This document shows positions 4,401 through 64,000 of a stretch of DNA of 64,000 nt, in pieces. Numbering within the stretch: position 1 is the stretch's first letter; each line of letters begins with the position of its first letter. This DNA is from Escherichia coli (GTDB taxonomy: Bacteria > Pseudomonadota > Gammaproteobacteria > Enterobacterales > Enterobacteriaceae): NCBI RefSeq assembly GCF_050920415.1, contig NZ_CP169309.1; one strand, given 5' to 3'. The position numbers and the translations under genes were made by a program. Below the pieces are notes generated by a model. The model was not told where the DNA came from. It ran no database searches and saw only the letters and a list, made by a program, of their open reading frames with translations.

Positions 4401-4492
4401 TCCTGAAAAAATCGGGCGGTGGGTGCGCGGTGTAAACGGTCACGGAGTCAAACCGGAACACCGCGCACGCCGCCCGCTGACGGGGTCAGTCG

Positions 4493-5293: not shown

Positions 5294-5338
5294 TTTTTCT
5301 CTCCGTTACAGGCGGGCATGATGCCCGCCGTGAGTTGA

Positions 5339-9157: not shown

Positions 9158-10203
9158 TGAGCAGAAAAAATAAAAAAGTGCGCATGAGTTCACGCATTGA
9201 TCTCGCTGATGCGCTCAGGAAAGAATCATCGCTCAGTGCATTCACATTTGATGGTCCTTATCGCCTGACCGGGCATGACCTGCTGGACAATATGTACTGT
9301 GCTGATAACGGGCGGTGGTATGAAACCCCGGTGGACTGGTACGGTCTGGCAAGAGCCGCCCGGCAAACGTCCTGGCATCAGTCTGCGCTTTACTTTAAGC
9401 GCAATGTATTGCTCGGTTGCTACATCCCGCACCCGCTGCTTTCCCGGCAGGATTTCTCGGCGCTGGCGCTGGACTGGTTTGTGTTCGGTAACGCATTCCT
9501 TGAGCTTCGAAGCAATATGCTCGGCGAACCGCTTAAATTACGGCACGCCCTGGCGAAATACATGCGACGCGGAAGCGATCTTGAATCATGGTGGTATGTG
9601 CAGGATGGCAAGGATGCGTTTCAGTTTCGCCCAGGCAAAGTGTGCCACCTGATGAATCCGGACATTAACCAGGAAATCTACGGCATGCCGGAATATCTCG
9701 GCGCATTACTCTCGGCCAGCCTGTCTCATTCGGCGGACATGTTCAGAAAACTGTATTACGACAACGGATCCCACGCCGGGTGCATCATCTACATCGGTGC
9801 AGCGCAGGTAAACCGCGAAAGCATGGACTCCCTGAAAGAAACGCTACAGGGTGCGCGTGGTGGTGGTGCGTTTAAAAACGTGCTCATTCATGCGCCCAAC
9901 GGGGGCAAAGAGGGGGTGCAAATTTTGCCGTTCCAGCAGATCACCGCAAAGGATGAGTTCATGAATGTTAAGGCGGCATCCCGTGATGATGTGCTGGCTG
10001 CGCACCGCGTTCCGCCGCAACTGATGGGGGCGATGCCGGGTGAAAAAAGTGCGTTTGGTGATGTGGAGAAGGCCGCGCGGGTTTACGCAATTAACGAGCT
10101 GATGCCCGTCATGGAGGCCATGAAGCATATCAATGACTGGCTTGGCGAAGAGGTGCTCCGCTTTAACCCTTACGCACTGCTGGACACCCAGCCCACATCC
10201 TGA
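9157..10203 (+). CDS. portal protein Q
   Basis: 348-aa ORF directly downstream of P, start overlapping P stop; P2 gpQ-like size. Confidence 0.8.
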   Translation: MSRKNKKVRMSSRIDLADALRKESSLSAFTFDGPYRLTGHDLLDNMYCADNGRWYETPVDWYGLARAARQTSWHQSALYFKRNVLLGCYIPHPLLSRQDFSALALDWFVFGNAFLELRSNMLGEPLKLRHALAKYMRRGSDLESWWYVQDGKDAFQFRPGKVCHLMNPDINQEIYGMPEYLGALLSASLSHSADMFRKLYYDNGSHAGCIIYIGAAQVNRESMDSLKETLQGARGGGAFKNVLIHAPNGGKEGVQILPFQQITAKDEFMNVKAASRDDVLAAHRVPPQLMGAMPGEKSAFGDVEKAARVYAINELMPVMEAMKHINDWLGEEVLRFNPYALLDTQPTS

Positions 10204-10694
10204 CGCGCTTCGCTTGTCTGCTGCTTCGCCGGGGCATAAAAAATTTATGCCCCGACTCTCCAGCTCCTGTATCAGTCAGATAATTTCACGACGCCTTCCA
10301 GTTTATCGCCACTATCGACAGTCAGACTCTTACGCAATCCCACTGCGCTGACTGCATGTTCTCGCCGCCTCAGTGCGATTTTGACGGCCTTATCTGCCAC
10401 CCCGTCAAATCAAAAGCCCTCACGTCTTTTTCACGCTCAGCGTGAGAAATACAGCCATTCTGTTGTGTCGCTGCGACATCGTTCAGGGGATGCTATTTAC
10501 CCCCTGAAACGCGGGCTGTTCCCCCGTCACCTGCGCGTAGAAAAAGCGCGTTTTTTTGTGCACGCACGGATCCTTGACGGATCCAGCCGCCACGCGGGCC
10601 GGAAGGGCAAAAAGTCGTTCAAAAAAATTGTGCAAATTTGTGCACTATTGTGCATTGAAATAAACGCCCTGGAAGAGGGCGTTTTGGCTCATTT
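10204..10694. other. non-coding region in the position of P2 cos / packaging site
   Basis: About 490 bp without credible ORF between portal Q and the accessory operon; contains three TGTGCA repeats (10631-10659) and a bidirectional hairpin cgccctggaagagggcg with flanking T/A runs. Cohesive-end sequence itself not identified. Confidence 0.35.
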
Positions 10695-10955
10695 CTATAG
10701 CTTTGATGCAGGCTGGGCTAGATGTAAGGGTTGGACATACCAGCCTTTTGATAACCAACTCTCTGCAACATCTTTACTCCTTGTTATTGCTGGTATTCCG
10801 ATGCCGTTATTTACATGCATCCATGCTACTGGCTCTGCTTCCAGCGATGCCAGTGCAATTTCATAAGCACGGCGTTCAATATTGTCTCGAACGTCCAGGC
10901 TGCCGATGCGCTCTTTGATTTCTTTAATCAGTTCTTTGTCGGTGAACGTTGTCAT
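10695..10955 (-). CDS. hypothetical protein (accessory operon, last gene)
   Basis: 86-aa ORF, no recognisable domain. Confidence 0.45.
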   Translation of the reverse strand: MTTFTDKELIKEIKERIGSLDVRDNIERRAYEIALASLEAEPVAWMHVNNGIGIPAITRSKDVAESWLSKGWYVQPLHLAQPASKL

Positions 10956-10965
10956 GTGTTAGTCC

Positions 10966-11229
10966 TTATCCTGCTGTGCTTTCAACTGATGAGGGGAACA
11001 AAATCTTTTCATCAAATCCGGCATTCATATCATGGACAGCAACACACCAATCCATCGACGAACGATTATCAAGAGCCTCCATGATTTCATCCATGCGGCG
11101 TAGGTCATACAGGTAAATGTTTTTATCGCCAATGGTGTAAAAACCAATTTTTTTCGGTGATGGACAGCGATCAAGAACGTCCTGTAATTCGTTCAACCAT
11201 GCCTGTTCTTTTTTTGTCAACGTTGCCAT
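10966..11229 (-). CDS. hypothetical protein (accessory operon)
   Basis: 87-aa product from internal Met MATLTKKEQAW; start trimmed to avoid overlap with upstream gene. Confidence 0.4.
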   Translation of the reverse strand: MATLTKKEQAWLNELQDVLDRCPSPKKIGFYTIGDKNIYLYDLRRMDEIMEALDNRSSMDWCVAVHDMNAGFDEKILFPSSVESTAG

Positions 11230-11230
11230 A

Positions 11231-11449
11231 TCAGTTTTCCTTATACGGATTAATTTTATTGTGCAATGTGTTGAACGACGCCCATACCACGTCGTTATAC
11301 AATTCAATAACTGGCTCAATTATTTTCCCGATTGCCCAGATAAAAATTAGCGGGGATATCGGTATCATCAACACGATAAACAGAATGAGAAACAGAAATT
11401 CTATTGCTCTACTCTTTCGCGGATAGTTTTTCCTGAATAGTGTAGGCAC
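11231..11449 (-). CDS. small membrane protein (accessory operon)
   Basis: 72 aa, GTG start preceded by AAGGAG; hydrophobic core FLFLILFIVLMIPISPLIFIWAIG; AT-rich. Confidence 0.45.
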   Translation of the reverse strand: MPTLFRKNYPRKSRAIEFLFLILFIVLMIPISPLIFIWAIGKIIEPVIELYNDVVWASFNTLHNKINPYKEN

Positions 11450-11450
11450 C

Positions 11451-11645
11451 TCACTCTCCTTTAATGCGAAAGTGGTTTTTCCAGCGGTTTTGCGCCGCGC
11501 TGGGCTTTTTGCAAAAACCGCAATCCATCATCCCGTAATATTTCATCAACCCCATTCGTCGGTTGCTGAGTCTCACCCACTGCCATACGCCTGGATCGTT
11601 TCTGCGAACTAACAGAATCTTTGCTTTACGGTTGTTGGTTGCCAT
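11451..11645 (-). CDS. small basic protein (accessory operon)
   Basis: 64 aa from ATG at 11645, preceded by AAGGGAGG Shine-Dalgarno. Confidence 0.45.
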   Translation of the reverse strand: MATNNRKAKILLVRRNDPGVWQWVRLSNRRMGLMKYYGMMDCGFCKKPSAAQNRWKNHFRIKGE

Positions 11646-11961
11646 ATCCCCCTCCCTTGATACCAATATTTACAACATGGCAAGCCTCTTTGAGCACCCA
11701 GTCAACAGCGTCTTTCCATGCTCCGGTTTCGGCTGGCGGATTCTCACGCTTTACCAGTTCATAGAAACGTACTGCTCTAACCAGTCCATCTGACGGTTTT
11801 GCCTGTAGTGCAGCCTGAGCTATGCGGTATGCCTGGAGTATACGGGCGTCGTTGATATCCATTCCGAACGGAATTTCTGATGATTGTGATTCTGCATCTT
11901 CAAGCCTGGCAATTTCTTTACGTAAGAAGTATTTCAACTCTTGTTTTTGTTTTCTGTTCAT
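11626..11961 (-). CDS. hypothetical protein (accessory operon)
   Basis: 111 aa; ATGA start/stop overlap with upstream zinc-finger gene; AAGGGA Shine-Dalgarno. Confidence 0.5.
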
Positions 11962-12290
11962 GCGTTTTTTCCCTTTTTGTCTGTCACTTCTCTCCTGATA
12001 ATTTCATTGCACAAATCCACGCACTCATTGCAGATGTAAACAGACGGTCCAGCAATCACCTTTGTGACTTCGTACTGGGATTTATTGCAGAAGCTGCAAT
12101 AAATCGTCTCCTCACCTGAAGTCCATGTTTTGCTGGTTTCGCCAGACATCAGTTGTTTGAGGTCTTTTTCACGACGAAGAACTATCTGGCCACATTCAGC
12201 TATTTTTTGGATGTTGACATTTTCTTCTTTCGCCAGCGCTTCCATCCGCTCAATCAGTCGCTGCGCTTTTTCTCTGTCAATGTGTTGCAT
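11958..12290 (-). CDS. small protein with C-terminal ClpX-type C4 zinc-finger domain
   Basis: Segment [40 protein letters not shown] closely matches the recalled N-terminal zinc-binding domain of ClpX ([40 protein letters not shown]); no AAA+ domain follows. AAGGGGGA Shine-Dalgarno. Confidence 0.6.
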
Positions 12291-12353
12291 TGTGTCCCCC
12301 TTGTTTATGCTCCCGGGTTAAAGTCATCAGGGCGGATGCGCCCTGATGTTGTG

Positions 12354-12665
12354 TTATTCGGGAAATAACGCCCGGATATTTCCGGCCATCTGACTGGTTA
12401 TCTGTGCGGCTGATACTGGCTGTGACGCGGGGCGTTCTGTCCTGGGTTGTGTCACTGATAACGCCTCATCATCAGCCCATGCAGCCAGTCGGTAAGCCTC
12501 TGCCGGATTCATTTTCAGTAGTGCCAGCCCGGCCAGAAAAGCCACGCGTTGACCACTTTTGCGGGCTTCTGGTGTAAGGCTGTCCAGCCAGGCGCATGCT
12601 TCGCCTTCGTTCTTGACGGCGGCGGGCTTCAGATAGAAACTTATCCGTCTGGTTGGTGTCGTCAT
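12354..12665 (-). CDS. ParR-like centromere-binding protein (ribbon-helix-helix)
   Basis: 103 aa; RRISFYLKP...WLDSL...FLAGLALL...NIRALFPE resembles recalled plasmid R1 ParR (RRTIAFKLNP...TLDSI...LTAGLALY...ILRSLFPKE); directly downstream of the ParM-like gene with AAGGAG Shine-Dalgarno. Confidence 0.6.
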   Translation of the reverse strand: MTTPTRRISFYLKPAAVKNEGEACAWLDSLTPEARKSGQRVAFLAGLALLKMNPAEAYRLAAWADDEALSVTQPRTERPASQPVSAAQITSQMAGNIRALFPE

Positions 12666-12669
12666 TGGC

Positions 12670-13629
12670 TTACTCCTTGTCCATTGCGTACAGCCCATTA
12701 ACCAGAGCAAACTGTGGCACCCCGTCCGCGATGAAAGTCGCATTAACTCCGCAGGCTTCGCGGATAGCGGGTGCCACAATCTCCGCCCCGCCACCGACAA
12801 CCATCACCCGCCCGTAACCCGAAAAACCCGCCAGCGCGCGGATCACGCGTTGTTTCAGTGTTTCTTCCTTTTCACGAATAACCGCCATCAGGCTGGCGTA
12901 ATGCGCGTCATTGTGGATGTGCTGGCGCAGCCAGGCTTCATCATGGCGATGTTCAATAATGGTATTGGCGATGTGGTGACTGGTGCGCATACCGTTAGTG
13001 GCCATCACCGACAGCACGGCATCGGCCATCAGTGAAACACCTACGTGTGGATCGCAAAACACCTGGCTGATACCTGCCAGTTGTCCCTGAACCTTTGCCA
13101 CATCCAGCGTGGTTCCGCCCAAATCCACAATCAGCAGGGATTCAAACGGACTCATGTCAGCCAGTGCCTTAAAGCCTGCCGGAATGGATTCAGGCATAAC
13201 CCGCACGTTACGGATAGTGAATGCCTCACCGTTCTGGTACTCCACCGGGCGCATAACGTTCGCTTTTTTGCGGTTGATGTTGGCCATGTCCGGCTGTGCG
13301 TTTGTGTCGAAATACTCGCTCAGTGGCAGGGTGACAACCACATCCACCTCCTGTGGCGTGATGCCTGATTTGACCAGCGCGTGATGAATGGCAATGACAT
13401 TCACATCGCTGTATTGGTATTGCGTGTCGGTCGTCTGGACAAAGCGATCGCTGACCGGATCAAAACCATAGCGCACGCCATCAAGCATGTAGTTCGCGGG
13501 CTGCGTGCCACCGAACGGCGCAGACCATTCCGACTTGAAGCTGTTCGGGCTGATGGCGTTGCGGCGTTCGCCGTTCTCAGTCCATGCCAGCTTGATGTTG
13601 GTGGAGCCGTCGTCGATACAAATTTTCAT
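12670..13629 (-). CDS. ParM/StbA-like actin-fold segregation ATPase
   Basis: 319 aa with the ParM nucleotide-binding motifs: MKICIDDGSTNIKLAW (phosphate 1), IVDLGGTTLDV (connect/adenosine), VMVVGGGAEI (phosphate 2). Confidence 0.8.
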   Translation of the reverse strand: MKICIDDGSTNIKLAWTENGERRNAISPNSFKSEWSAPFGGTQPANYMLDGVRYGFDPVSDRFVQTTDTQYQYSDVNVIAIHHALVKSGITPQEVDVVVTLPLSEYFDTNAQPDMANINRKKANVMRPVEYQNGEAFTIRNVRVMPESIPAGFKALADMSPFESLLIVDLGGTTLDVAKVQGQLAGISQVFCDPHVGVSLMADAVLSVMATNGMRTSHHIANTIIEHRHDEAWLRQHIHNDAHYASLMAVIREKEETLKQRVIRALAGFSGYGRVMVVGGGAEIVAPAIREACGVNATFIADGVPQFALVNGLYAMDKE

Positions 13630-13660
13630 GTCGCTTTTCCTTATGTTGATTAATTAATCG

Positions 13661-13760
13661 TTTACGGGATTCTGAAATCCCGTTTTTGCCTGCTTTGTGC
13701 GCGCTTCATATATCACTGCGCGTTTTTTGCTCATTTACGGGATTCGTGAGTCCCGTTTCT
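13661..13760. repeat. two direct copies of a 27-bp hairpin-containing repeat upstream of the ParM-like gene
   Basis: TTTACGGGATTCTGAAATCCCGTTTTT (13661-13687) and TTTACGGGATTCGTGAGTCCCGTTTCT (13734-13760), 22/27 identical, each an ACGGGA/TCCCGT inverted repeat; the second lies inside the 3' end of gene A. Confidence 0.5.
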
Positions 13761-16528
13761 GTCTGTTTTTTGTTTCCGCTGGTCAGGCCACCCCGCAGCA
13801 GGTCTGCTTTGCGGCTGGCGCGTTCAGTGGTTTCACTGATTCTCTGTGCGTGCTCTGCGTCGCGGATGGCGCGCAGCATGTCAGAAAGCACAGTAACGGG
13901 TGTTTTCATGGTGTTCTGGTCCTGCTGAAGTGTGGATGCCAGGCGTGCGGCGGCTTCAGGGTCTGATGCCCCCAGCTGTGCCAGATAGCTGGCGACCGGG
14001 TTATGGCGGATCTCCGTGCTGCTTACGCCATGATTACGGCTCAGGCGCTGCCAGAGCTGCGTGATTCGGCTGTCCGGGCGGGTATCCGGTTTGCGTACAA
14101 TTTCAAATCCCTGCGGTGCAATGATGCTGCCGTCAACGTACAGACTGCCGCCCCGTAACAGGTGCTGCATCTGTTGTTCACCGATATGCAGGCCGAGAGA
14201 TTCAGCAGACTCCCGCCATTCTTTAGCGAGTAATTCGTGGTTATCAGGCAAAGGCCGCTGCTGTTTGCGGCTCTGTGTCCAGCTCTGCATTTCATCACTG
14301 CTGTTTTTTGCCTGTTTGTCACGAAGCGAACGCATCAGCGCCCGGCGTTCGTGCCGTTTCAGTGAGCGCATCCATTCGTTCACTTCAACGCCGTCAGGGA
14401 GCTGCGGCCACGGTGCTGGCCGTTCTTCCGGCTGTTCTGTCCCGTTGTTGTCCGTTTCCTGTGCACGGGGACAGTTATTGCCACGAGTCCAAGGGGCGGC
14501 AGGGCCGCCCTGAAGGTCAAAACCATTTTCGTGGGCGTTGTCTCCCGGTTCTGGTTTACGTCTTACCAGCTTCCAGTTATCCGGATGCGTGCACACACGG
14601 GAGGATTCCCCGATGAGTGGTGACCAGATCCCGTAAATCTGTACGCTCTGTTCGCCGTAATCGTTCAGCTCATCTGCGAGGTCGTAGGCGGTGCGAATCA
14701 GGTAGTCCTTGCGTGGAACAAGCACGCCACCCTGTTTTTCAATGTAGGTGGCAAAACACCCGGCATCGGCGGCAGCGAGTACCGCATCCATTGCATCATC
14801 TTTCAGCCGTTGCGGGCCTTCCGGATTGCGTGCCATCTGGCTGGCAAGGCGGCGCAGTTCACGCCACACCTGACGGGAGGGGATGCCAAAGAACTGGAAC
14901 TGACGGACCCGGTGAAGGCGCGCCCAGCCGATGGCGCGCTCCACGCTCTCGGCCATTGATTTTCCGGTTTCGTGGTCAACGCGTGGCTTGCCCGTTTTCG
15001 GGTCGATGCCATCCACGGCGCGGCTGTCCAGGTTCTTTCCGATGTAGGTGGCGATGTAGCTGGTTGGTGTGCCTTTTGAGCCGTCGACATACTCCGCCTT
15101 AAAACGCGGAGTTATGTCATCGCCCAGCTCGTGGCGGTCCTCCTGAATGGCAATATCGCAGACGTGGGACACGATGGTTTCAATCTCGTCCGGATGTGCA
15201 AAGACCATCATATGCCAGTGCACAGTGCCGTCATGGTGAGGCTCCACCGTGCGGATGCCATACCAGCGCAGGCCGTCGCGGTTCAGTTTTTTGCGGACCG
15301 CCGCAAAAAACGTGTTAACCAGGTAATCGCTGGAGTCGCGCATGGTGGCCCCGTTCCATTTGGGGTTCGGATGACCGTTCTCCGTTGTTGCGTGGTATTT
15401 TGACGGGCAGGTGACGGTCAGAAACACCGCTCTGTCGCCACGGGCTTCGGCCAGAAGTTCCAGTCCCTTCATGGTGGCCATCATTTCTGCCTTACGGTGA
15501 ACCGGGTTACTTACTCCCGCGTAATACACCGTCTCGAGATCAATCGTGAACCCGTCTTCATTTTCCAGCATGAAACTTTTCAGGAAATCGCGTGTTTTCT
15601 CGCGCTGTGCGCGAAACTCGCTTAACGCGTCCTGGCTCAGATAGGGGGATGTTTTTCTGGAAACCAGACAGGCGGCGCGGAGTTGTTCTTCCCGCCACTC
15701 ACAACGTAACAGCCACAGTTTGCGTTTCCACCATTCCGCACAGGTCAAGCGAAGGATTGCGCCCGGCAGCAGCTCCGTGTCCGGTTCGTTCCTCCGGTCT
15801 TTGTCTGTTGTCAGTGCGTCATAATGTGGAGGCATGGCGTGCAGGTGTAACGCCATGCGGGCCAGCATCTGATAAGCCTTCAGGGTTACATCCATGGTCA
15901 GCTCGCCATCAGTCGCGCCAAAGCCATCGCAGAGTTTTTCGAAGGTGCTGCTGAACATCGCCGCCGTCATGGTGGCCAGCGTCTGTATCTGGTGTTTGTT
16001 GAGCTGCGGCAGGTAAAGCAAATCGTCCAGGCGTTCGCGTCCGGCAAGGGAGCGATAACCCGGTGTCAGCCAGCGGTGGTCGGTGCGGTCCAGACGTTCG
16101 AATATTTTGCGCAGGGTTCCGCACGCGTAGCGTTCAGCCTGCCAGCTCTTTTTGCCTTTCCGGCGATCGGCTTCCTGTTTTTTGCGCAGGAAGGAGAGGT
16201 GGCGAATAAGCGGATCGCGCAGATAGGACGGCAGCAGGCGCAGCGAGGCCATGGCTTCATCCACCGCGCCACGTGCCTGTTTTCTGGCGTCTCCTGCCAG
16301 TGTGATGGTTTTGTCCTGTTTTTCCTGTGCGTCCAGGCTTTTATTAATCAGGTTGCCCAGCGGCGTGGCGGAGAACGCCGCATCAGCCATTTCCTGGCGG
16401 CGCTCGTTCTCTGCCCGGTAGGCATCCAGCCAGGAGGAAAGCGCGGATTCAGGAGCGGGGATCCCCGTTCCTTCACGCCCCACTGCGTGGCGCGGTTGTT
16501 GCCAGTCCCTGATGTACTCTGCCGTCAT
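13706..16528 (-). CDS. replication initiation protein A (rolling-circle nicking endonuclease, P2 gpA-like)
   Basis: 940 aa; HUH-type motif region GTVHWHMMVF and tyrosine motif TSYIATYIGK; position between early genes and accessory region. Confidence 0.8.
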   Translation of the reverse strand: MTAEYIRDWQQPRHAVGREGTGIPAPESALSSWLDAYRAENERRQEMADAAFSATPLGNLINKSLDAQEKQDKTITLAGDARKQARGAVDEAMASLRLLPSYLRDPLIRHLSFLRKKQEADRRKGKKSWQAERYACGTLRKIFERLDRTDHRWLTPGYRSLAGRERLDDLLYLPQLNKHQIQTLATMTAAMFSSTFEKLCDGFGATDGELTMDVTLKAYQMLARMALHLHAMPPHYDALTTDKDRRNEPDTELLPGAILRLTCAEWWKRKLWLLRCEWREEQLRAACLVSRKTSPYLSQDALSEFRAQREKTRDFLKSFMLENEDGFTIDLETVYYAGVSNPVHRKAEMMATMKGLELLAEARGDRAVFLTVTCPSKYHATTENGHPNPKWNGATMRDSSDYLVNTFFAAVRKKLNRDGLRWYGIRTVEPHHDGTVHWHMMVFAHPDEIETIVSHVCDIAIQEDRHELGDDITPRFKAEYVDGSKGTPTSYIATYIGKNLDSRAVDGIDPKTGKPRVDHETGKSMAESVERAIGWARLHRVRQFQFFGIPSRQVWRELRRLASQMARNPEGPQRLKDDAMDAVLAAADAGCFATYIEKQGGVLVPRKDYLIRTAYDLADELNDYGEQSVQIYGIWSPLIGESSRVCTHPDNWKLVRRKPEPGDNAHENGFDLQGGPAAPWTRGNNCPRAQETDNNGTEQPEERPAPWPQLPDGVEVNEWMRSLKRHERRALMRSLRDKQAKNSSDEMQSWTQSRKQQRPLPDNHELLAKEWRESAESLGLHIGEQQMQHLLRGGSLYVDGSIIAPQGFEIVRKPDTRPDSRITQLWQRLSRNHGVSSTEIRHNPVASYLAQLGASDPEAAARLASTLQQDQNTMKTPVTVLSDMLRAIRDAEHAQRISETTERASRKADLLRGGLTSGNKKQTETGLTNPVNEQKTRSDI

Positions 16529-20562: not shown

Positions 20563-21564
20563 ATGTCGGTTCGTAAGATTCCATCAGGTAAATGGCTTTG
20601 CGAATGTTATCCCTACGGGGCATCGGGAAAACGCATTCGTAAACAGTTTGCGACAAAAAGTGAGGCGCTCTCTTATGAGCGCCGTTTAATGAATAGTAGA
20701 GTTGGAGACGAGTTTCAAGATGGTTCTGGTCCTCGTCTTTCTGAGTTGATTGCTCGTTGGTTTGAGATGTACGGTAAAACCTTGTCCTCTGGTGCAGAGC
20801 GCAAAGTCAAACTTGAGGCGATTTGTTCCAGGCTGGGAGATCCATTTGCTTCTCAGTTTGACAAAAATATGTTTGCTACTTATCGGGAAAGAAGGCTATC
20901 AGGAGAATGGAATCCCAAGGGGAAGAAAAAACTTAGTGAAGCAACCGTTAATCGCGAGCAGTCATATCTACATGCTGTTTTTGCCGAACTGAAGCGCCTT
21001 GGGGAGTGGTCTGGTGAAAACCCCCTGACTGGTATTCGCAAGTTTCGTGAGGAAGAAAAGGAACTGGCGTTTCTGTATGTAGATGAGATTGAACGCCTTC
21101 TGATTGCGTGTGATGAGTCACGGAATAAAGATTTGGGGGTTGTTGTCCGTATTGGGCTTGCGACTGGTGCTCGGTGGAGTGAAGCAGAAGGATTAAAGCA
21201 ATCTCAAGTACTGCCCGGTCGAATCACATTTGTTAAAACTAAAGGAAAGAAGAACCGCACTGTACCGATTTCACCTCAATTGCAGGCTATGCTTCCTAAA
21301 AAACGAGGAGCGCTATTTTCACCATGTTATGAGGCTTTTGACGCTGCAATTAAGAGAGCGAAGATCGAGCTTCCTGATGGGCAATTAACTCATGTGCTAC
21401 GTCACACGTTTGCCAGTCATTTTATGATGCGGGGCGGAAATATTCTTGTGTTGCAAAAAATACTGGGGCATAGCGATATAAAAATGACTATGCGTTATGC
21501 GCATTTTGCTCCAGGTCATTTAGAGGCTGCTGTTGAATTGAACCCTTTTGACAATAGAGGGTAA
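20563..21564 (+). CDS. int: prophage integrase (tyrosine recombinase)
   Basis: 333 aa; catalytic motifs HVLRHTFASHF and TMRYAH; last prophage gene before the tRNA fragment. Confidence 0.85.
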   Translation: MSVRKIPSGKWLCECYPYGASGKRIRKQFATKSEALSYERRLMNSRVGDEFQDGSGPRLSELIARWFEMYGKTLSSGAERKVKLEAICSRLGDPFASQFDKNMFATYRERRLSGEWNPKGKKKLSEATVNREQSYLHAVFAELKRLGEWSGENPLTGIRKFREEEKELAFLYVDEIERLLIACDESRNKDLGVVVRIGLATGARWSEAEGLKQSQVLPGRITFVKTKGKKNRTVPISPQLQAMLPKKRGALFSPCYEAFDAAIKRAKIELPDGQLTHVLRHTFASHFMMRGGNILVLQKILGHSDIKMTMRYAHFAPGHLEAAVELNPFDNRG

Positions 21565-21670: not shown

Positions 21671-21725
21671 TTTAAAATCCCTCGGCGTTCGCGCTGTGCG
21701 GGTTCAAGTCCCGCTCCGGGTACCA
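21671..21725 (+). other. leuZ: att junction: 3' 55 nt of tRNA-Leu(UAA) (leuZ-like) ending in CCA; partial gene only
   Basis: TTTAAAATCCCTCGGCGTTCGCGCTGTGCGGGTTCAAGTCCCGCTCCGGGTACCA matches the anticodon loop to 3' end of leuZ as recalled; the 5' half is replaced by phage DNA with only degenerate similarity. Confidence 0.7.
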
Positions 21726-50943: not shown

Positions 50944-52677
50944 TTACATACGCTCTACTGTCTCAATACCCAGCGTATCCAGGCCCAGCTTCAGCGTCTT
51001 CGCCGTCAGTTGTGCCAGTTTCAGACGACTGTTACGCACTTCTTCGTTTTCTGCGCTGAGGATCGGGCAGTGCTCGTAGAAGCCAGAGAACAGACCGGCC
51101 AGATCGTACAGGTAAGCACACATCACGTGCGGCGTGCCTTCACGGGCAACCACAGTGAGGGTTTCTTCAAACTGCAGCAGGCGAGCTGCCAGTTGCGCTT
51201 CACGATCTTCACGGATGATTACCGGAGCTGCAGCCAGTTGCTCTTCGTCAATTTCTGCTTTACGGAACACGGACAATACACGCGTGTAAGCATACTGCAT
51301 GTATGGCGCGGTATTACCCTCAAACGCCAGCATGTTGTCCCAGTCGAAGATGTAGTCAGTGGTACGGTTTTTGGAGAGATCTGCGTATTTAACCGCACCA
51401 ATACCAACCGCATTAGCCAGTTTTTCCAGCTCATCGGCTGGCATATCCGGGTTCTTCTCTGCCACCAGACGGCGTGCGCGTTCCAGGGCTTCATCCAGCA
51501 GATCGGCCAGTTTCACCGTACCGCCAGCACGCGTTTTGAACGGTTTGCCGTCTTTGCCCAGCATCATGCCGAACATATGGTGTTCCAGCGGTACGGATTC
51601 CGGCACATAGCCTGCTTTACGGACGATCGCCCACGCCTGCATCAGGTGTTGATGCTGACGGGAGTCGATGTAATACAGCACGCGATCGGCATGCAATGTT
51701 TCATAACGATATTTCGCACAGGCGATATCAGTGGTGGTGTAGAGATAGCCACCATCTTTCTTCTGAATGATCACGCCCATCGGTTCGCCTTCCTTGTTTT
51801 TGAACTCATCAAGGAATACGACGGTTGCGCCTTCGCTTTCTACAGCCAGACCTTTGGCTTTGAGATCAGCCACGATACCCGGCAGCATCGGGTTGTACAG
51901 GCTTTCGCCCATCACGTCATCACGAGTCAGCGTCACGTTCAGACGATCGTAGGTGATCTGGTTCTGCGTCATGGTGATGTCGACCAGTTTGCGCCACATC
52001 TCACGGAAGTATTCGTCACCGCTTTGCAGTTTTACCACGTAGTTACGTGCACGCTCAGCGAACGCTTCATCTTCATCGTAATGCTTTTTCGCATCGCGGT
52101 AGAAACCTTCAAGATCAGCCAGCTCCATTTCACCGGCATTTTCCTGCTGCTGCTTTTCCAGCCATGCAATCAGCATACCGAACTGAGTGCCCCAGTCGCC
52201 GACGTGGTTTGCGCGAATCACTTTGTGACCGAGGAACTCCAGAGTACGCACTGTTGCGTCGCCAATAATGGTAGAGCGCAGGTGACCGACGTGCATCTCT
52301 TTCGCCACGTTTGGCGCAGAGTAGTCAACTACAATGGTCTGTTTTTCTGGCGTAGCAACACCGAGACGATCGGACGCCAGCGCCTGCTGAACATGTTCAG
52401 CCAGGAATGCCGGATCAAGGAAAATGTTGATAAAGCCTGGTCCGGCGATCTCAACCTTGCTGGCGATACCGTTAAGATCCAGATGAGTCAGCACCTGCTC
52501 TGCTAATTGTCGCGGTGCCATACCCAGTTTTTTAGCAACTGCCATCATGCCGTTAGCCTGATAGTCGCCGAACTGAACTTTTGCTGACTGACGAACCTGC
52601 GGTTCGCAATCCGCAGGCGCGCCTGCCGCAATCATGGCCTGACGGACTTTTTCTGAGAGAAGAGCCTGAATATTCAC
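50944..52677 (-). CDS. argS: arginine--tRNA ligase
   Basis: 577 aa; class I HIGH motif as HVGH. Confidence 0.9.
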
Positions 52678-52892
52678 CGGAATACCTTACATTGATGAAG
52701 CGAGCAAAAATTGCCCGCACCAGTTAAAGAAATTAGGGCGGGAGTATACTGCAAATGGCTGTTTTCGTCAGCAACGTGCGCGTGGCGTATTGCCGTTTTC
52801 ACCATTGCATCAGAAGCGGCGTGAAATCAGCGGTTGGTTGGCGCAGGGCAACAGGGTAAATTAACGCTTTTACTGAAAGACGAAGAGTGATT

Positions 52893-53459
52893 ATGGCGAA
52901 CTGGCAATCTATCGACGAGCTGCAGGATATTGCATTGGATTTACCGCGATTTACCCACGCATTAGATGAACTTTCTCGCCGTCTTGGGCTGGATATCACT
53001 CCGCTGACTGCCGATCACATTTCTTTGCGTTGCCATCAAAACGTTACCGCTGAACGCTGGCGTCATGGGTTTGAACAGTGCGGCGAGCTTTTGTCAGAAA
53101 ATATGATCAAGGGCAGGCCGATTTGTCTGTTTAAATTGCATGAACCGGTACAGGTGGCTCACTGGCAGTTTTCAATTGTAGAGCTACCGTGGCCTGGGGA
53201 AAAACGTTACCCGCACGAAGGTTGGGAACATATTGAAATCGTTCTGCCAGGTGATCCTGAAACGTTGAATGCCCGTGCGCTGGCATTGCTTTCTGATAAA
53301 GGACTCAGCCTTCCGGGGATCTCGGTTAAAACCAGTTCGCCAAAAGGTGAGCATGAGCGATTACCGAATCCGACGCTGGCGGTCACCGATGGCAAAACGA
53401 CCATTAAATTTCATCCGTGGTCCATTGAAGAGATCGTTGCCAGCGAGCAGTCGGCGTAA
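52893..53459 (+). CDS. yecM: VOC-family protein YecM
   Basis: 188 aa starting MANWQSIDELQD, divergent from argS. Confidence 0.8.
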   Translation: MANWQSIDELQDIALDLPRFTHALDELSRRLGLDITPLTADHISLRCHQNVTAERWRHGFEQCGELLSENMIKGRPICLFKLHEPVQVAHWQFSIVELPWPGEKRYPHEGWEHIEIVLPGDPETLNARALALLSDKGLSLPGISVKTSSPKGEHERLPNPTLAVTDGKTTIKFHPWSIEEIVASEQSA

Positions 53460-53463
53460 TTAA

Positions 53464-54219
<756 letters not shown>

Positions 54220-54265
54220 TTTTTACCGTTGCATCATGTCGCCCAATATGATGCTTGCTCGTACC

Positions 54266-54299
54266 AGGCCCCTGCAATTTCAACAGGGGCCTTTTTTTA
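54266..54299 (+). terminator. rho-independent terminator after cutC
   Basis: Perfect 9-bp stem AGGCCCCTG/CAGGGGCCT with 9-nt loop followed by TTTTTTT. Confidence 0.65.
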
Positions 54300-54604
54300 T
54301 CCCCGAAAAGTATAAAAAACGAACGATTTCTGTGATCAGTTGAGCGCGTGACAGTGCGCATAGCGTTGTGCTAAAAATTTTTATATATTCATATTAATTA
54401 TGTAATTTAAATTACTAAAACTGACAAATATATATTCTAAATAACAACTGGGTTATTCCTTAGCAATTAATGATTACATTGTAATAAATCATATTCTTTA
54501 TCGATTATTTCAGGCAGTGTTGTGCCGAATTATGCAAGCGGTCAATTCGTTGTATATTTAATTATACAATGTTTTCGGTGTTCTGGAATTAATTAGAGGA
54601 ATCT

Positions 54605-55705
54605 ATGCGAGGGAAAAAACGCATTGGGTTATTATTTTTGCTGATAACGGTTGTGGTTGGTGGCGGCGGGTTATTACTGGCGCAAAAAGCCTTACATAAA
54701 ACGTCGGATACCGCATTTTGCCTTTCCTGCCACTCGATGAGTAAACCTTTTGAGGAATATCAGGGAACTGTCCACTTTTCTAACCAGAAAGGGATACGTG
54801 CGGAATGTGCCGATTGCCATATTCCAAAGTCAGGGGCGGATTATTTATTTGCTAAATTAAAAGCTTCTAAAGATATTTATCATGAATTTGTTAGTGGCAA
54901 AATAGACAGTGACGATAAGTTCGAAGCGCATCGTCAGGAAATGGCCGAAACAGTATGGAAAGAATTAAAAGCAACTGATTCTGCAACGTGTCGTAGTTGC
55001 CATTCTTTTGATGCCATGGATATTGCCTCGCAAAGTGAATCTGCGCAGAAAATGCATAACAAAGCGCAAAAGGACGGCGAAACCTGTATCGATTGTCATA
55101 AAGGCATTGCCCATTTTCCACCACAAATAAAAATGGATGACAACGCGGCGCATGAGCTGGAAAGTCAGGCCGCTACTTCAGTTACCAATGGCGCACATAT
55201 TTATCCTTTCAAAACTTCTCGCATAGGCGAGCTGGCTACCGTGAATCCTGGTACCGATCTCACCGTCGTTGATGCCAGTGGCAAACAGCCGATCGTTCTG
55301 TTGCAGGGTTATCAAATGCAGGGCAGTGAAAACACGCTCTACCTGGCGGCAGGTCAACGGCTGGCGCTAGCCACATTAAGTGAAGAAGGTATCAAGGCGT
55401 TAACGGTAAACGGGGAATGGCAGGCTGACGAATACGGCAATCAATGGCGTCAGGCGTCTTTACAGGGTGTGCTTACCGATCCCGCATTAGCGGACCGTAA
55501 ACCGCTATGGCAATACGCTGAAAAACTTGACGATACCTATTGCGCTGGTTGCCATGCCCCTATTGCCTCCGACCATTACACCGTCAATGCATGGCCGTCC
55601 ATTGCCAAAGGAATGGGTGCGCGAACCAGCATGAGCGAAAACGAACTGGACATTTTGACGCGGTACTTCCAGTACAACGCCAAAGATATTACCGAGAAAC
55701 AGTGA
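54605..55705 (+). CDS. torY: membrane-anchored pentahaem c-type cytochrome TorY
   Basis: 366 aa; N-terminal anchor and five CxxCH motifs (CLSCH, CADCH, CRSCH, CIDCH, CAGCH). Confidence 0.85.
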
Positions 55706-55729
55706 TCCTCGTTGATCAGGGAGGAAGTT

Positions 55730-58159
55730 ATGACATTAACAAGACGTGAATTTATTAAACACAGCGGTATTGCCGCTGGGGCGCTGGTGGTGACATCGGC
55801 TGCACCGTTACCTGCATGGGCAGAAGAGAAGGGCGGCAAAATCCTCACCGCAGGCCGTTGGGGAGCGATGAACGTAGAAGTGAAGGACGGCAAGATTGTT
55901 TCTTCGACAGGCGCGCTGGCGAAAACCATACCGAACTCCTTACAGTCTACGGCGGCTGATCAGGTACATACAACGGCGCGTATTCAGCATCCGATGGTGA
56001 GAAAAAGCTATCTCGATAATCCACTACAACCGGCGAAAGGTCGTGGCGAAGATACTTATGTACAGGTGAGCTGGGAACAAGCATTAAAACTTATTCATGA
56101 TCAACACGATCGCATTCGCAAAGCTAACGGACCATCGGCCATTTTTGCCGGATCTTACGGCTGGCGCTCTTCTGGCGTGTTACATAAAGCGCAAACCTTA
56201 CTGCAACGTTATATGAATCTTGCGGGCGGTTATTCAGGGCATAGCGGCGATTATTCAACCGGGGCGGCACAGGTGATCATGCCGCATGTGGTGGGTTCCG
56301 TGGAGGTGTATGAACAGCAGACCTCCTGGCCGCTGATTCTGGAAAACAGCCAGGTTGTGGTGCTGTGGGGGATGAACCCGCTGAATACCTTAAAAATTGC
56401 CTGGAGCAGTACCGATGAGCAAGGGCTGGAATACTTCCATCAGCTGAAAAAATCTGGCAAACCAGTGATTGCCATTGATCCTATCCGCTCCGAAACCATC
56501 GAATTCTTTGGCAATAATGCCACCTGGATCGCGCCGAATATGGGCACCGACGTGGCACTGATGTTAGGGATTGCACATACCCTGATGACACTAGGCAAAC
56601 ACGATAAAGTGTTCCTTGAAAAATACACCACCGGGTATCCGCAGTTTGAAGAGTATCTGACAGGTAAGAGCGATAAAACGCCGAAGAGCGCGGCCTGGGC
56701 GGCGGAAATTACTGGCGTAGCGGAAGCGCAGATAGTCAAACTCGCTGAACTGATGGCGGCAAATCGCACAATGCTGATGGCAGGCTGGGGAATTCAGCGC
56801 CAGCAATATGGTGAACAGAAACACTGGATGCTGGTGACGCTGGCGGCGATGTTAGGGCAGATTGGTACACCGGGCGGCGGGTTTGGTTTCTCTTATCATT
56901 ACTCAAACGGTGGCAACCCGACGCGTGTTGGCGGAGTGCTGCCGGAAATGTCTGCGGCGATTGCCGGACAGGCCAGCGAGGCCGCTGATGATGGCGGAAT
57001 GACGGCGATTCCTGTTGCCCGTATCGTCGATGCGCTGGAAAATCCTGGCGGCAAATATCAGCATAACGGTAAAGAACAAACGTATCCGAATATCAAAATG
57101 ATCTGGTGGGCGGGTGGCGGTAACTTTACCCATCACCAGGATACTAATCGTCTGATTAAAGCATGGCAGAAACCGGAGATGATCGTCGTTTCTGAATGCT
57201 ACTGGACCGCAGCTGCTAAACATGCAGATATCGTATTACCGATCACCACATCGTTTGAGCGCAATGACTTGACGATGACCGGTGATTACAGCAACCAGCA
57301 TATTGTACCGATGAAGCAGGCTGTCGCTGCGCAATTTGAAGCGCGTAACGATTTTGATGTGTTTGCCGATCTTGCTGAATTACTCAAACCTGGCGGAAAA
57401 GAGATCTATACCGAAGGTAGAGATGAAATGGCGTGGCTGAAATTTTTCTATGATGCCGCTCAGAAAGGTGCGCGTGCGCAACGCGTGACTATGCCGATGT
57501 TTAATGCTTTCTGGCAGCAAAATAAACTGATCGAAATGCGCCGCAGCGAGAAGAACGAACAGTACGTTCGTTATGCTGATTTCCGCGCCGATCCGGTGAA
57601 AAATGCGCTGGGTACGCCAAGCGGCAAAATTGAGATTTACTCCAAAACGCTGGAAAAATTTGGCTATAAGGATTGCCCGGCACACCCAACCTGGCTTGCG
57701 CCTGATGAGTGGAAAGGTTCCGCCGACGAGAAGCAGTTGCAGCTTCTGACCGCACATCCGGCACACCGTTTACACAGTCAGCTTAACTATGCGGAACTGC
57801 GTAAAAAATATGCGGTTGCCGATCGTGAACCGATCACTATTCACACCGAAGATGCTGCTCGCTTTGGTATTGCGAATGGCGATCTGGTGCGTGTCTGGAA
57901 CAAACGTGGTCAGATTCTGACAGGCGCGGTGGTGACTGACGGGATCAAAAAAGGCGTGGTATGCGTGCATGAAGGTGCATGGCCAGATCTGGAAAATGGC
58001 TTGTGTAAAAACGGCAGTGCGAACGTGTTAACGGCGGATATCCCCAGCTCTCAGCTGGCAAATGCCTGTGCCGGTAACTCTGCGCTGGTGTATATCGAAA
58101 AATATACGGGCAATGCACCGAAGTTAACGGCGTTTGATCAGCCAGCTGTTCAGGCATAA
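55730..58159 (+). CDS. torZ: TMAO/N-oxide reductase catalytic subunit TorZ (molybdopterin enzyme)
   Basis: 809 aa with twin-arginine signal [19 protein letters not shown]. Confidence 0.85.
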
Positions 58160-58210
58160 GACGTGAAAAGCGCCCGGAAACGGGCGCTGAGGTTATGCAA
58201 ACGTAAAACT

Positions 58211-58310
58211 GCCTGATGCGCTATGCTTATCAGACCTACATAGTCCCTGCAACATATTGAATTAAAAAGGCTTTGTAGGCCGGATAAGGCGTTCACGCCG
58301 CATCCGGCAG
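58211..58310. repeat. REP/BIME elements between torZ and cmoB
   Basis: GCCTGATGCGCTATGCTTATCAGACCTACA and TGTAGGCCGGATAAGGCGTTCACGCCGCATCCGGCA are canonical REP units in inverted orientation. Confidence 0.6.
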
Positions 58311-58323
58311 TAATACCAGACCT

Positions 58324-60471
<2,148 letters not shown>

Positions 60472-60523
60472 ACAAACTCCCTTTAAAATGGCCGATGGCA
60501 CCTGTCTATGATAGGTGGCAAAT

Positions 60524-61249
60524 TCAGAAAAGAGAAGATTGCTGTGGAATAGCCGGAACTGCTCCGATCTCTGGAAGTGTTTTACGTAAGCCTTCCCACA
60601 GGGTATGTACCAGTTCCGGTGCCTGGGCAATATCTGGCGTATGTAAAAAAAGATAAGGCGTAGTGGTCTGATGCCACTGCGCTAATTTTTGTAACCAAAC
60701 CTGAAACAACTCTCGGTTTTGCGTCATATCATCACTACCGATAAAACGGATCAGCGGATTTGTCGCCGTCAGCACAGCATGTACGGGAACTTTAGGTTTT
60801 TTCCGTTGAGCGTCGCGAATAGCTTCACTGTGTGGGCGTGCTGCATGAACCGGGCGGCTGTCTAAAATCACCCGATTAACGCCGCGCTGATGTAAACCGC
60901 GATTAAGTGTTTGTTCCTCTTCCCCTTTGGCGAAAAACTGTGGATGGCGGACTTCCACACCATAATTAAACTCGCCGGGAAGAGAGTCGAGAAAATGCCA
61001 AAGCGCAGGCAGATCCCGTGGGCCAAATGTGGCAGGCAGTTGCAGCCAGTATTGCCCAATGCGCGGCGCTAACGGTGACAAGCGAGTCAAAAATTCAGTT
61101 ACTAAATCATCGCAATGCCGTAATGCTGCCTGATGCGAAATGGTCGCCGGAAACTTAAAACAGAAGCGAAAATTATCTGTGGTCTGCTCACGCCAGCGCA
61201 GGACAACCTCGGATTTCGGCAGGGCGTAAAGCGTGGTGTTGCCCTCCAC
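60524..61249 (-). pseudogene. yecE: yecE (DUF72) lacking its native 5' end; interrupted by prophage insertion
   Basis: Reading frame stays open and yecE-like upstream of the GTG at 61249 (..LAFNTRHVNCVEGNTTLYALPK) until it runs into the integrase 3' end around 61260-61300; N-terminal about 30 codons and promoter are not present here. Confidence 0.55.
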
Positions 61250-61275
61250 ACAGTTAACATGACGGGTATTAAAGG

Positions 61276-62589
61276 CTAACTTACTGATTTTAATAGGCCT
61301 CTTGTGTCACTTTGGTGACTATGGGACATCATTGGGACATAATCTGCCAGCTTCTGATTCAGCATGGCGATCTGTTCTGCATTGCTGTCAGTCATCCATG
61401 CTCCGTATACATTGAACACCATCTGGGCACTTGCATGGCCCATCTGGCTGGCAATGAAGCTTGGATTTGCTCCGGCAGATAATGACCAGCACGCATAAGT
61501 GTGTCGTGACTGGTATGCCTTTCGATGCCTGATGCCTGCATGCTTAATGGCTGTTTCCCATGAGTCGCCAATGGAATCTACTTTGTAGATAAAACCTACC
61601 TGTTTGCTTTTTCTAACCACCTGGGGGTTAAATACGAAAGTACATTCATGATTCACTGAACGTCCATATTCACGTAGTTGAACCTTGATGTGGTGCTGCT
61701 TACCCAGTCTTGTCATTTCAGCCTGATTTTTCAGGACACTGATAGCGGGCTGGATAAGATGCACAACCCTGTTTGTACTTGCCTCAGTTTTAGGTAGAGT
61801 GAACTCGCCGAGTTTCGTATAATTACGCCTGATAGTAATTGTTCCTGCTTTCAGATCGATATCTTCCCATGCCAGGGAGACCAGTTCACCGTGACGCATT
61901 CCTGTGTACACAGCCAATGACCACAGGTTTTTCGTCTGCTGATGTCGGCAGGCATCTATCAGGCGAATAAATTCGTCACGAGTTAGCGGATCTGGTTCTG
62001 CCCTGGCTCTTTTAAGAGGCTTAATTCCCTCGAAGGGATTTGCTTCTAAGTAACCGTGATCTGCAGCAAACTGAAACATTCCAGCGATTGTCGTCATGTA
62101 ATAATTTACAGTAACGACGCTCCGTCCTTTTAGTGCTGCTTTGTTTTTCGTTGAATTCTGATACCCGGTCAGCAAATCTTTCCTGATATACAGCAATTCC
62201 TCTTTGGTTACCGATGACACCAGTCTGCTGCCTCCAATTTTCGGAACCATCGTTCTTGCAACGGATTCATAGCGATTGAATGCATTTGCAGAGATTTCCA
62301 TTCGTTTCAGATCCAGCCACTTTTCTTCAAGTTCTTTCACCGTAATTTCTTTTTTACTTACCCCAAAAGCCTGAAGGTTAGGGGAGTCAGGGAACTGTGC
62401 AGCATAATCAAAGCTTCCTGTGCGGATGGCAAAACATACCGATGTCCGCAGTTCCCCGGCGATCTTCCTGTTCTTGGCAGTGTCAGGGACACCAAGATTT
62501 TCCCTGACACGTTTACCTTTAAAATTAAACCAGATGCGTAATGTGCCGCCGTGGTTTTCGACGCCTGTTGGATATTTGACTTTATCCAT
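61276..62589 (-). CDS. int: lambdoid prophage integrase (tyrosine recombinase)
   Basis: 437 aa; motifs SRHTYACW and VYGAWM at C-terminus; N-terminal arm-binding-like domain. Confidence 0.85.
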   Translation of the reverse strand: MDKVKYPTGVENHGGTLRIWFNFKGKRVRENLGVPDTAKNRKIAGELRTSVCFAIRTGSFDYAAQFPDSPNLQAFGVSKKEITVKELEEKWLDLKRMEISANAFNRYESVARTMVPKIGGSRLVSSVTKEELLYIRKDLLTGYQNSTKNKAALKGRSVVTVNYYMTTIAGMFQFAADHGYLEANPFEGIKPLKRARAEPDPLTRDEFIRLIDACRHQQTKNLWSLAVYTGMRHGELVSLAWEDIDLKAGTITIRRNYTKLGEFTLPKTEASTNRVVHLIQPAISVLKNQAEMTRLGKQHHIKVQLREYGRSVNHECTFVFNPQVVRKSKQVGFIYKVDSIGDSWETAIKHAGIRHRKAYQSRHTYACWSLSAGANPSFIASQMGHASAQMVFNVYGAWMTDSNAEQIAMLNQKLADYVPMMSHSHQSDTRGLLKSVS

Positions 62590-62644
62590 CGATACCTCCA
62601 GACGCCCAAGAGCGATACGAGCTTACATATTTCATGATATTAAA

Positions 62645-62881
62645 TCACCTGGGTTGTTTGTTTTTCATTGAGGCGACCCAGGCATCTATTGCTTTTCTGT
62701 TATACATACATTCACTGGAAGGCTTTGGATTACCGTCTGGTGATACGTGAATATACTCTCTTCCAACCATCCAGCATTCTTTCCGGGCCCGAAGAATTGT
62801 GCCTGGTTTGAGCCCGGTAATTGCGATTAGAACGCTTTCACAAACCCATTCATTGGGAGCCAGTTGAATCACATTGCCCAT
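62645..62881 (-). CDS. xis: excisionase (Xis-like)
   Basis: 78 aa directly upstream of int; EWV..TGLKPGTILRARKECWMVGREYIH resembles the lambda Xis winged-helix pattern. Confidence 0.6.
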   Translation of the reverse strand: MGNVIQLAPNEWVCESVLIAITGLKPGTILRARKECWMVGREYIHVSPDGNPKPSSECMYNRKAIDAWVASMKNKQPR

Positions 62882-63039
62882 GCATTACCTCACACAACAC
62901 TCAGCCCACGGCAGTGGCACCACACTTCAAACATTCGTTTCACAATTTCACGACAGTAGAAACCGTCAACATCTCGCGTCAGGTCATAGCGATTGCCGTA
63001 ACGCTGGCGCACCCATAGCTCAAACGCTTTATTCATTCT

Positions 63040-63282
63040 TTACTTCCTTTTCATGGCACGTAATTTTTTCAGATGAGCTTCCTGTTCTGTTTCTGCCAGA
63101 ATTTGTCGGTATTCCAGGTGATCGAGTCGTTCAAACATTTCATTAAAATCGTTTATTTTTACCGACTGTATTCGCCCATCCATTCTTCTGTACAACACGA
63201 TGTTATTTATGCAGCGAATAATTTTTACCGGGTAACCGGCACTGTTGGTATACAGTTGTCCCTGATTAATCAAAGCAAACAT
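63040..63282 (-). CDS. hypothetical prophage protein
   Basis: 80 aa from internal Met; longer form overlaps the upstream ORF by 92 nt. Confidence 0.35.
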   Translation of the reverse strand: MFALINQGQLYTNSAGYPVKIIRCINNIVLYRRMDGRIQSVKINDFNEMFERLDHLEYRQILAETEQEAHLKKLRAMKRK

Positions 63283-63313
63283 TTTTTCTCCTGCTCTCTG
63301 AATAGTGAGAACT

Positions 63314-63694
63314 TCAGAGCCGTATGTTTGTAGCGGGTTCAATACTGATAATTTCTGCTGAGATAAGCATCCCGGCAAGCCAGAGCTCTCCGGACAGGTC
63401 TTCATCCTGGCATGTCAGTTCGCCAATATTAATGGTAGCCATGATATCTGTTTCCCCTGTACGCTCATCCTCGACTTCTTCATAAGGCAGCGTTGCGTAC
63501 AGGCTTTCAATAGCGCAACTGATAACATCCAGTCCGGTCAGATTGCCGCCGACAGTAACTTCGAATGTTTCGCGGTATTTCCATAGCCCGAAAGTTAATC
63601 GAATGGTTTGTTTTGCCATGCGTCCGCATAACGTCAGATTTGGGTCATAGTTCATAACTTCAGATGAGATACATTGTGTCTCGATGCTATTCAT
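63314..63694 (-). CDS. hypothetical prophage protein
   Basis: 126-aa acidic ORF in the early-left region. Confidence 0.4.
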   Translation of the reverse strand: MNSIETQCISSEVMNYDPNLTLCGRMAKQTIRLTFGLWKYRETFEVTVGGNLTGLDVISCAIESLYATLPYEEVEDERTGETDIMATINIGELTCQDEDLSGELWLAGMLISAEIISIEPATNIRL

Positions 63695-63972
63695 TTTGTT
63701 ACTCCTGATTTTTTTCGGATTACCTTTTTCAATTTTTTACCGTTATTCACGTTACAGTAAATTTCGGCAAGTTCGCGTGATAACATTATTTCTCCGCTAT
63801 TTTTATCTATAGCAATGTGATCGGGATTATCACGAATAAACTTCTTTATCATTGGCATTGCCATAAACTCTTCTGGCGTATAGATGCGTGTATGGCGGCG
63901 AACGTGTTTTATCACAGGTATTTTATGTTTTGATTCAACCTGAAATACATTAATTTTATTTTGATTTGCCAT
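63691..63972 (-). CDS. hypothetical prophage protein
   Basis: 93-aa ORF, ATGA overlap with downstream gene. Confidence 0.4.
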   Translation of the reverse strand: MANQNKINVFQVESKHKIPVIKHVRRHTRIYTPEEFMAMPMIKKFIRDNPDHIAIDKNSGEIMLSRELAEIYCNVNNGKKLKKVIRKKSGVTK

Positions 63973-64000
63973 GTGTAATATTTAATGTGTTACTGGCGCT

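Follow-up and report, generated by a model that had tools for sequence, protein, structure and literature searches.

The chromosomal gene yecE of Escherichia coli is a recognised integration site of Shiga toxin (Stx)-converting phages, as an earlier reading of the DNA described here (the original prediction) had stated. The Stx2e phage phiP27 is inserted there (Recktenwald and Schmidt 2002, cited in PMC8065619), and Stx1a, Stx2a and Stx2d phages occupy the same gene (PMC8112680). yecE hosts non-Stx phages as well (PMC8112680; PMC8705337; Recktenwald and Schmidt 2002 as cited in PMC8065619). The yecE prophages of O145:H28 E. coli that produce Shiga toxin (STEC) comprise Stx1_14040, Stx2_12E129_yecE and the stx-negative PPyecE_EH1910 (Nakamura et al. 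2021, PMC8112680). We analysed a window of 64,000 nucleotides of E. coli contig NZ_CP169309.1. Its last part, positions 61247–64000, is very probably the integrase-proximal end of a lambdoid prophage of about 46 kb in yecE that is free of stx, judged by the best proxy genome. Both this kind of element and its site are known, and RefSeq already contains it in annotated form. The element was rightly predicted to be the second prophage of the window, which already holds a P2-family prophage at its start (Table 1).

The prophage beyond position 64000 was read from a proxy, E. coli MFDS1022581 (NZ_CP169399.1; 50-kb locus L001). The proxy differs from the window by 5 mismatches in positions 21671–50000 and by 1 in 59127–64000. 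The 12,725 bp of positions 51276–64000 hold a single mismatch; the comparison covered these and positions 21671–50000. Among the assemblies read, MFDS1022581 alone shares the backbone around the junction; the others have about 97% identity there. The sole differing base in these 12.7 kb, position 61275 (G versus A), belongs to the proximal attachment (att) arm and directly follows the stop codon of the integrase on its 3′ side. The proxy prophage (NZ_CP169399.1 2110120–2156427) is 46.3 kb long and reaches from the integrase-side core to another core copy, beyond which lie a 31-codon 5′ fragment of yecE, yecD and aspS. The prophage of the source strain is presumably the same as that of the proxy.

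The phiP27 record (AJ298298 / NC_003356) provided the 11-bp core. It annotates attL and attR as TTAACTGCGTG (yecE sense), the same core at both phage ends. The att of the O145:H28 yecE prophages was reported with 21 bp (PMC8112680), compared with 11 bp here. The attB of K-12 is CACTTTAACTGCGTGGAGGGC. At the integrase-side junction of the window, CCCGTCATG is followed by the core TTAACTGTGTG and GAGGGC. At the far junction, which is available from the proxy only, CGCCACT precedes the core TTAACTGCATG and ACAGGAC follows it. The insertion in yecE has a core copy at both ends. An empty site rebuilt from the two prophage ends is 99.5% identical to unoccupied yecE genes, with an identical core.

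The two core copies differ at positions 8 and 9. The integrase-side copy has T8 and G9, the chromosomal bases, and the far copy has C8 and A9. Five other assemblies with an identical Int protein on other backbones have C at position 8. The unoccupied yecE of strain 7/2 has exactly TTAACTGTGTG together with the linked downstream GAAATCC variant. T8 tracks the chromosomal backbone and not the phage; hence, positions 8–11 on the integrase side would be chromosomal and C8/A9 on the far side phage-derived. From this natural variation, we infer that strand exchange occurs within the shared first 7 bp of the core, TTAACTG (yecE codons 28–30), not across the whole 11-bp annotated core.

A repeated motif, ATGYCCCAW, is present in both att arms: two copies in the proximal arm (Table 1), three exact and several degenerate copies in the distal arm (L001 48241–48290). 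Across the 50 kb of L001, the motif has five exact copies, all on one strand and none farther than about 190 bp from one of the two cores. The motif is conserved in phiP27. The integrase has an arm-binding domain, which makes these repeats plausible arm-type Int sites. The motif was picked after inspection of the arms and is a lead, not a test.

The open reading frames (ORFs), the alignment to K-12 YecE and the far end of the proxy prophage agree with the predicted anatomy of an integrase 3′ end abutting a yecE that lacks its 5′ end and promoter. Codons 1–31 are missing from the junction side of the window, together with yecD and the upstream promoter region. In the proxy, these codons are found 46.3 kb away, adjoining yecD (L001 48412–48513). 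The yecE start overlaps the yecD stop in K-12, so the native upstream region of yecE is lost here too. Val32 (GTG), inside the att core, is the first and only in-frame canonical start for the 3′ part. Inactivation of yecE by the insertion is very likely. The Prokaryotic Genome Annotation Pipeline (PGAP) nevertheless calls a 256-aa coding sequence (CDS; 60524–61294) that includes 15 phage-derived residues and overlaps the integrase 3′ end by 19 bp. No ATG, GTG or TTG start is present within its phage-derived stretch and the ORF list shows no longer ORF, so that expression of this chimeric CDS is doubtful. Against the YecE equivalog NF007637, the call scores 489.6 bits, above the cut-off of 412, and covers profile positions 19–272 of 272. 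It appears as an intact 'DUF72 domain-containing protein' without pseudogene flag and recurs in many RefSeq genomes.

The integrase end relates the prophage to phiP27. Over 2409 bp, comprising int, xis and two further ORFs, the nucleotide identity is 96.6%; the common early-left DNA reaches window position 63655. int and xis have the same lengths as their phiP27 orthologues L01 and L02 (1314 and 237 bp). The end is 96.3% identical to PhiR49_2 (PV340570), a non-Stx lambdoid Escherichia phage with ECOR13 as recorded host. The O145:H28 yecE prophages share the target gene and the position of int and xis at the junction, and have stx-positive and stx-negative members, but their integrases are only 73–79% identical at the DNA level. 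An identical integrase protein is encoded in at least 68 assembly blocks, and the yecE 3′ part adjoins it in all six places shown. The protein is predicted to be a tyrosine recombinase with an N-terminal arm-binding domain (PF12167, E 2.4e-23, residues 7–70) and a catalytic domain (PF00589, E 1e-17, residues 202–395). It matches phrog_1 (E 1.6e-86), and its translation contains box-like motifs (TGMRHGEL, SRHTYA, GH...VY). Its stop codon is 18 bp from the att core. With 96–100% identity to annotated records, chance similarity is ruled out as the basis of the predicted features.

The term lambdoid integrase is loose: it fits the organisation of the prophage, but the integrase, with its arm domain Arm-DNA-bind_2, is not closely related to lambda Int. 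No lambda Int chain was among the PDB matches of the integrase at E <= 0.001. By analogy, the system resembles lambda Int/Xis: the tyrosine integrase is probably heterobivalent and has its arm-binding domain at the N-terminus, the gene directly upstream encodes a small excisionase, the core is short, and each of the two arms contains repeated arm motifs. It differs in the integrase subfamily, the target and core sequences, and the position of the proximal arm inside the int coding sequence.

The prophage would have entered yecE by Int-mediated site-specific recombination. Recombination of attP with the yecE attB within TTAACTG would split yecE after codon 31, leaving the 241-codon 3′ part beside int in the same orientation and, at the far end beyond the window, the 31-codon 5′ part beside yecD. 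Int and the adjacent Xis would both be needed for excision. Judged by the proxy, the phage itself combines phiP27-family int–xis, early and replication modules with a lambda-like lysis, head and tail set.

The lambda-like gene order was established with the PGAP table and PHROG assignments of the Q-like, CII-like, Ant, RusA and Lom proteins. The window covers int, xis and the early-left ORFs, and the proxy provides the remainder. In the proxy, int, xis and early-left ORFs are followed by an immunity region with a CII-like gene, cI (S24 peptidase type) and a cro-like gene, then by Ant, Lar and Ash. A DnaC-like loader and a DnaB-type helicase form the replication module. RusA and a Q-like antiterminator (DUF1133, phrog_753) precede a helix-turn-helix (HTH) protein and an IS66 element. 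TerB/TciB-like genes, IraM and nanS-p, of which a stump of 105 codons is left, lead to the lysis genes for holin, lysozyme and Rz. The head genes encode a lambda-type terminase, portal, S49 protease, decoration and capsid proteins. Tail genes through J, Lom and a tail fibre complete the order. An unannotated 1-kb gap in the late region (L001 23890–24926) has no ORF above 79 aa.

Similarities to described phages are modular. The DNA common to the proxy prophage and phiP27 is limited to phiP27 1–2409, 3663–5778, 9468–13795 and the last 189 bp; the replication module is 92–95% and the distal att arm 89% identical. The immunity regions differ, and phiP27 has a contractile-tail morphogenesis set (sheath, baseplate) in contrast to the lambda-like head and tail genes of the proxy. 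Between Q and the holins, phiP27 carries stx2e, the tRNA genes ileZ/argO and a DNA methylase, all absent from the proxy, which has IS66, TerB and IraM in the Q-to-lysis interval. Lambda-like phages, e.g., mEp332, share 87% identity with the late half of the proxy prophage over about 80% of that half. PhiR49_2 shares the lambdoid order (cI/cro, O/DnaC/helicase, Q, S-R-Rz, J-type tail, Lom, side tail fibre) and has no stx annotated. Its similarity to the window ends after about 1.9 kb, and its Q type, terminase, portal and capsid are different: an HK97-like head compared with the lambda-like head with S49 protease and decoration protein in the proxy. The O145:H28 yecE prophages have a patchy similarity of 83–94% to the proxy in the holin, endolysin, Rz, TerB and nanS-p region, and their stx-positive members carry stx where the proxy has other genes. 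Around the toxin position, the Q-to-lysis region of the proxy has only patchy matches to the Stx1a phages in yecE and to the stx-negative PPyecE_EH1910.

The original prediction held that the unseen remainder of the prophage may carry virulence cargo and proposed a screen for stx, a Q antiterminator and lysis modules. Applied to the proxy, the screen found a Q-like gene and a lysis cassette but no stx. tblastn with Stx2e A/B and Stx1 A/B detected neither stx1 nor stx2 in the 50-kb locus (best E = 0.96) or in the 64-kb window (best E = 0.36). As positive control, the queries found each other's genes in control phages with E values around 1e-109. The stxA and stxB genes that mark a converting phage downstream of Q are lacking in the proxy. 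The interval from Q to nanS-p, the position of stx in Stx phages, is filled with the HTH gene, IS66, TerB/TciB-like genes and IraM. No type III effector is annotated in the proxy prophage, whose last tail-fibre-associated gene is separated from the far core by 250 bp free of annotated genes. PADLOC revealed no defence system among ten accessory or hypothetical proxy proteins; a JetC-like match (E 3e-4) was weak, fell in a coiled-coil tail fibre and was dismissed. Lom, TerB/TciB-like proteins, IraM, Lar, the truncated nanS-p and IS66 are ordinary accessory genes; Lom, TerB-like, IraM and Lar are common lambdoid morons. The suggested cargo is therefore absent from a complete prophage that differs by one base in 12.7 kb around the junction, a result that the prediction itself had named as contradicting it. 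Among five examined elements with this integrase type, only phiP27 carries stx; MFDS1022581, the porcine JP538, the bovine OkiPb01701 and phage PhiR49_2 do not.

Several observations weigh against the overall reading of the element. The proxy lacks the P2-family prophage at leuZ and is a close relative, not the same isolate. The unseen 43.5 kb of the prophage could differ, as lambdoid late regions recombine readily. A9 in the far core may be a later mutation and not the phage allele; this base is missing from the PhiR49_2 record. The record was searched for attP but runs between prophage-style coordinates without the far core. In the proxy prophage, nine CDSs are flagged as frameshifted or partial, among them cI, the tape measure and J; this points either to genuine decay of the element or to errors of the assembly limited to repeated lambdoid DNA. 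The source strain might harbour a Shiga toxin-converting phage with the same integrase end and stx in the late regulatory region. The int module so similar to that of phiP27, the occupation of yecE by Stx1a, Stx2a, Stx2d and Stx2e phages (PMC8112680, PMC8705337) and the truncated nanS-p and TerB as remnants typical of Stx-phage backbones speak for it. Such a phage is very unlikely in view of the nearly identical proxy without stx, the four stx-less elements out of five and the window itself without stx-like sequence. The unflagged 256-aa CDS could also be taken for an intact yecE next to an integrase from an unrelated insertion. This idea has next to no probability: the start codon of the call, ATT, is non-canonical and lies in phage DNA, and the first 31 native codons, missing from the call, sit at the far end of the prophage beside yecD. 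It is refuted by the att cores, the K-12 YecE alignment and the comparison of the rebuilt empty site with unoccupied yecE, which match as described above.

The stx-free lambdoid prophage in yecE may be defective, unable to produce phage and possibly to excise. A cryptic prophage is a serious possibility, though falling somewhat short of an even chance. The cI-like repressor of the proxy is split by a 1-bp deletion relative to JP538 (L001 7368–8056); the Rz, tail U, tape measure and J genes carry frameshifts or are partial; an IS66 element is inserted upstream of the TerB-like gene (L001 16263–18851); and nanS-p has a deletion of about 1.85 kb. The adjacent 50 kb of the proxy chromosome have no frameshifted CDS except a fliC interrupted by IS2. 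The unlike bases of the two att cores at positions 8–9 also fit decay, but they fall outside the proposed 7-bp overlap. In the window, int, xis and every ORF of the prophage part are intact, and the Int protein is conserved without change in the assembly blocks mentioned above. An intact 229-aa repressor is encoded in four other assemblies and OkiPb01701 has intact lysis genes. The frameshifts could be polishing errors in the repeated lambdoid DNA of one assembly.

Table 1. Features of the window around the yecE junction and at the window start. Positions refer to the 64,000-nucleotide window.
Feature	Position	Strand	Description
P2-family prophage	1–21670		
Integrase of the P2-family prophage	20563–21564		
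leuZ (tRNA-Leu) remnant	21671–21725		last 55 nt
cmoB	58324–59295	minus	
cmoA	59292–60035	minus	
yecN (MAPEG family)	60076–60471	minus	chromosomal gene downstream of yecE; PGAP annotation of a near-identical record and K-12 gene order
yecE 3′ part (DUF72)	60524–61249	minus	codons 32–272 of 272; 241-aa ORF, alignment to K-12 YecE
Integrase-side att core copy	61247–61257	minus	11 bp, TTAACTGTGTG in yecE sense
Phage-derived stretch joined to yecE by PGAP	61258–61294	minus	yields the 256-aa chimeric CDS with ATT start
Tyrosine integrase, phiP27 type	61276–62589	minus	437 aa; Arm-DNA-bind_2 and Phage_integrase domains
Candidate arm-type Int site	61321–61329	minus	ATGTCCCAT; inside int 3′ end
Candidate arm-type Int site	61332–61340	minus	ATGTCCCAA; inside int 3′ end
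Excisionase	62645–62881	minus	78 aa; DUF1233 / phrog_539 (E 5e-40)
Four small early-left prophage ORFs	62890–63972	minus	PHROG and PGAP
Hypothetical protein		minus	48 aa; first of the four early-left ORFs
DUF4222 protein	63040–63282	minus	
DUF5406 protein	63314–63694	minus	
Hypothetical protein	63691–63972	minus	93 aa

The chromosomal genes and the prophage end are arranged on the minus strand in the order cmoB, cmoA, yecN, yecE 3′ part, integrase, excisionase and four small ORFs to the window end. int shares its orientation with the yecE 3′ part, yecN, cmoA and cmoB. A promoter and terminator scan of positions 59900–63100 found no terminator-like site between int and the yecE 3′ part, with promoter and terminator counts at or below shuffle expectation, and is uninformative on function. 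The insertion cuts yecN–cmoA–cmoB off from the yecD-side upstream region, and their expression might depend on prophage read-through. Partial dependence of yecN and of cmoA and cmoB, which act in the 5-carboxymethoxyuridine (cmo5U) modification of tRNA, on read-through from int and the early-left region is very unlikely. cmoA may well have its own promoter.

Of 5425 complete E. coli genomes, 4903 have the yecE attB region without interruption, leaving about 9.6% with a split region, and this integrase type adjoins yecE in 137 genomes. In GCA_017750545.1 (AAZTNA010000021.1, locus L011, 11296–13318), which has the identical integrase, the yecE 3′ part is shortened again to 148 aa. After it come a large serine recombinase of 507 aa and another phage's tail genes, so that the residual yecE fragment appears to have received a second, independent insertion.

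Positions 1–21725 of the window hold the P2-family prophage, which encodes a replication endonuclease, ParM and Ogr/Delta as well as a capsid and terminase of the P2 type; it ends inside leuZ next to yecA. ARAGORN detected no tRNA in the window because only the last 55 nt of the tRNA-Leu remain. The best-matching genomes are 99.2% identical at this junction. MFDS1022581 has an intact glyW-cysT-leuZ at this place. An Rfam scan of positions 58000–64000 gave no match in the prophage-end and yecE region. Between torZ and cmoB (58232–58322), sub-threshold Rfam matches to small RNA families derived from repetitive extragenic palindromic (REP) sequences were observed, naRNA4 (39.7 bits, gathering threshold 59.5) and ES036; both probably reflect an ordinary REP element.

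For E. coli genomics, the prophage matters little beyond correct annotation. The 256-aa 'yecE' CDS that PGAP calls in such lysogens is a chimeric call that masks a disrupted gene. The 7-bp exchange region and the ATGYCCCAW motif are small technical aids for mapping the att sites of Stx phages. Read-through from the prophage, if true, would link a tRNA modification pathway to the state of the prophage wherever yecE is occupied, in roughly 10% of E. coli genomes. The useful message for risk assessment is a negative one. The presence of a phiP27-type integrase at yecE is no predictor of a Shiga toxin phage: given the four stx-less elements among five with this integrase and the near-identical reference prophage, typing of integrase and site alone should not be used to flag STEC potential.

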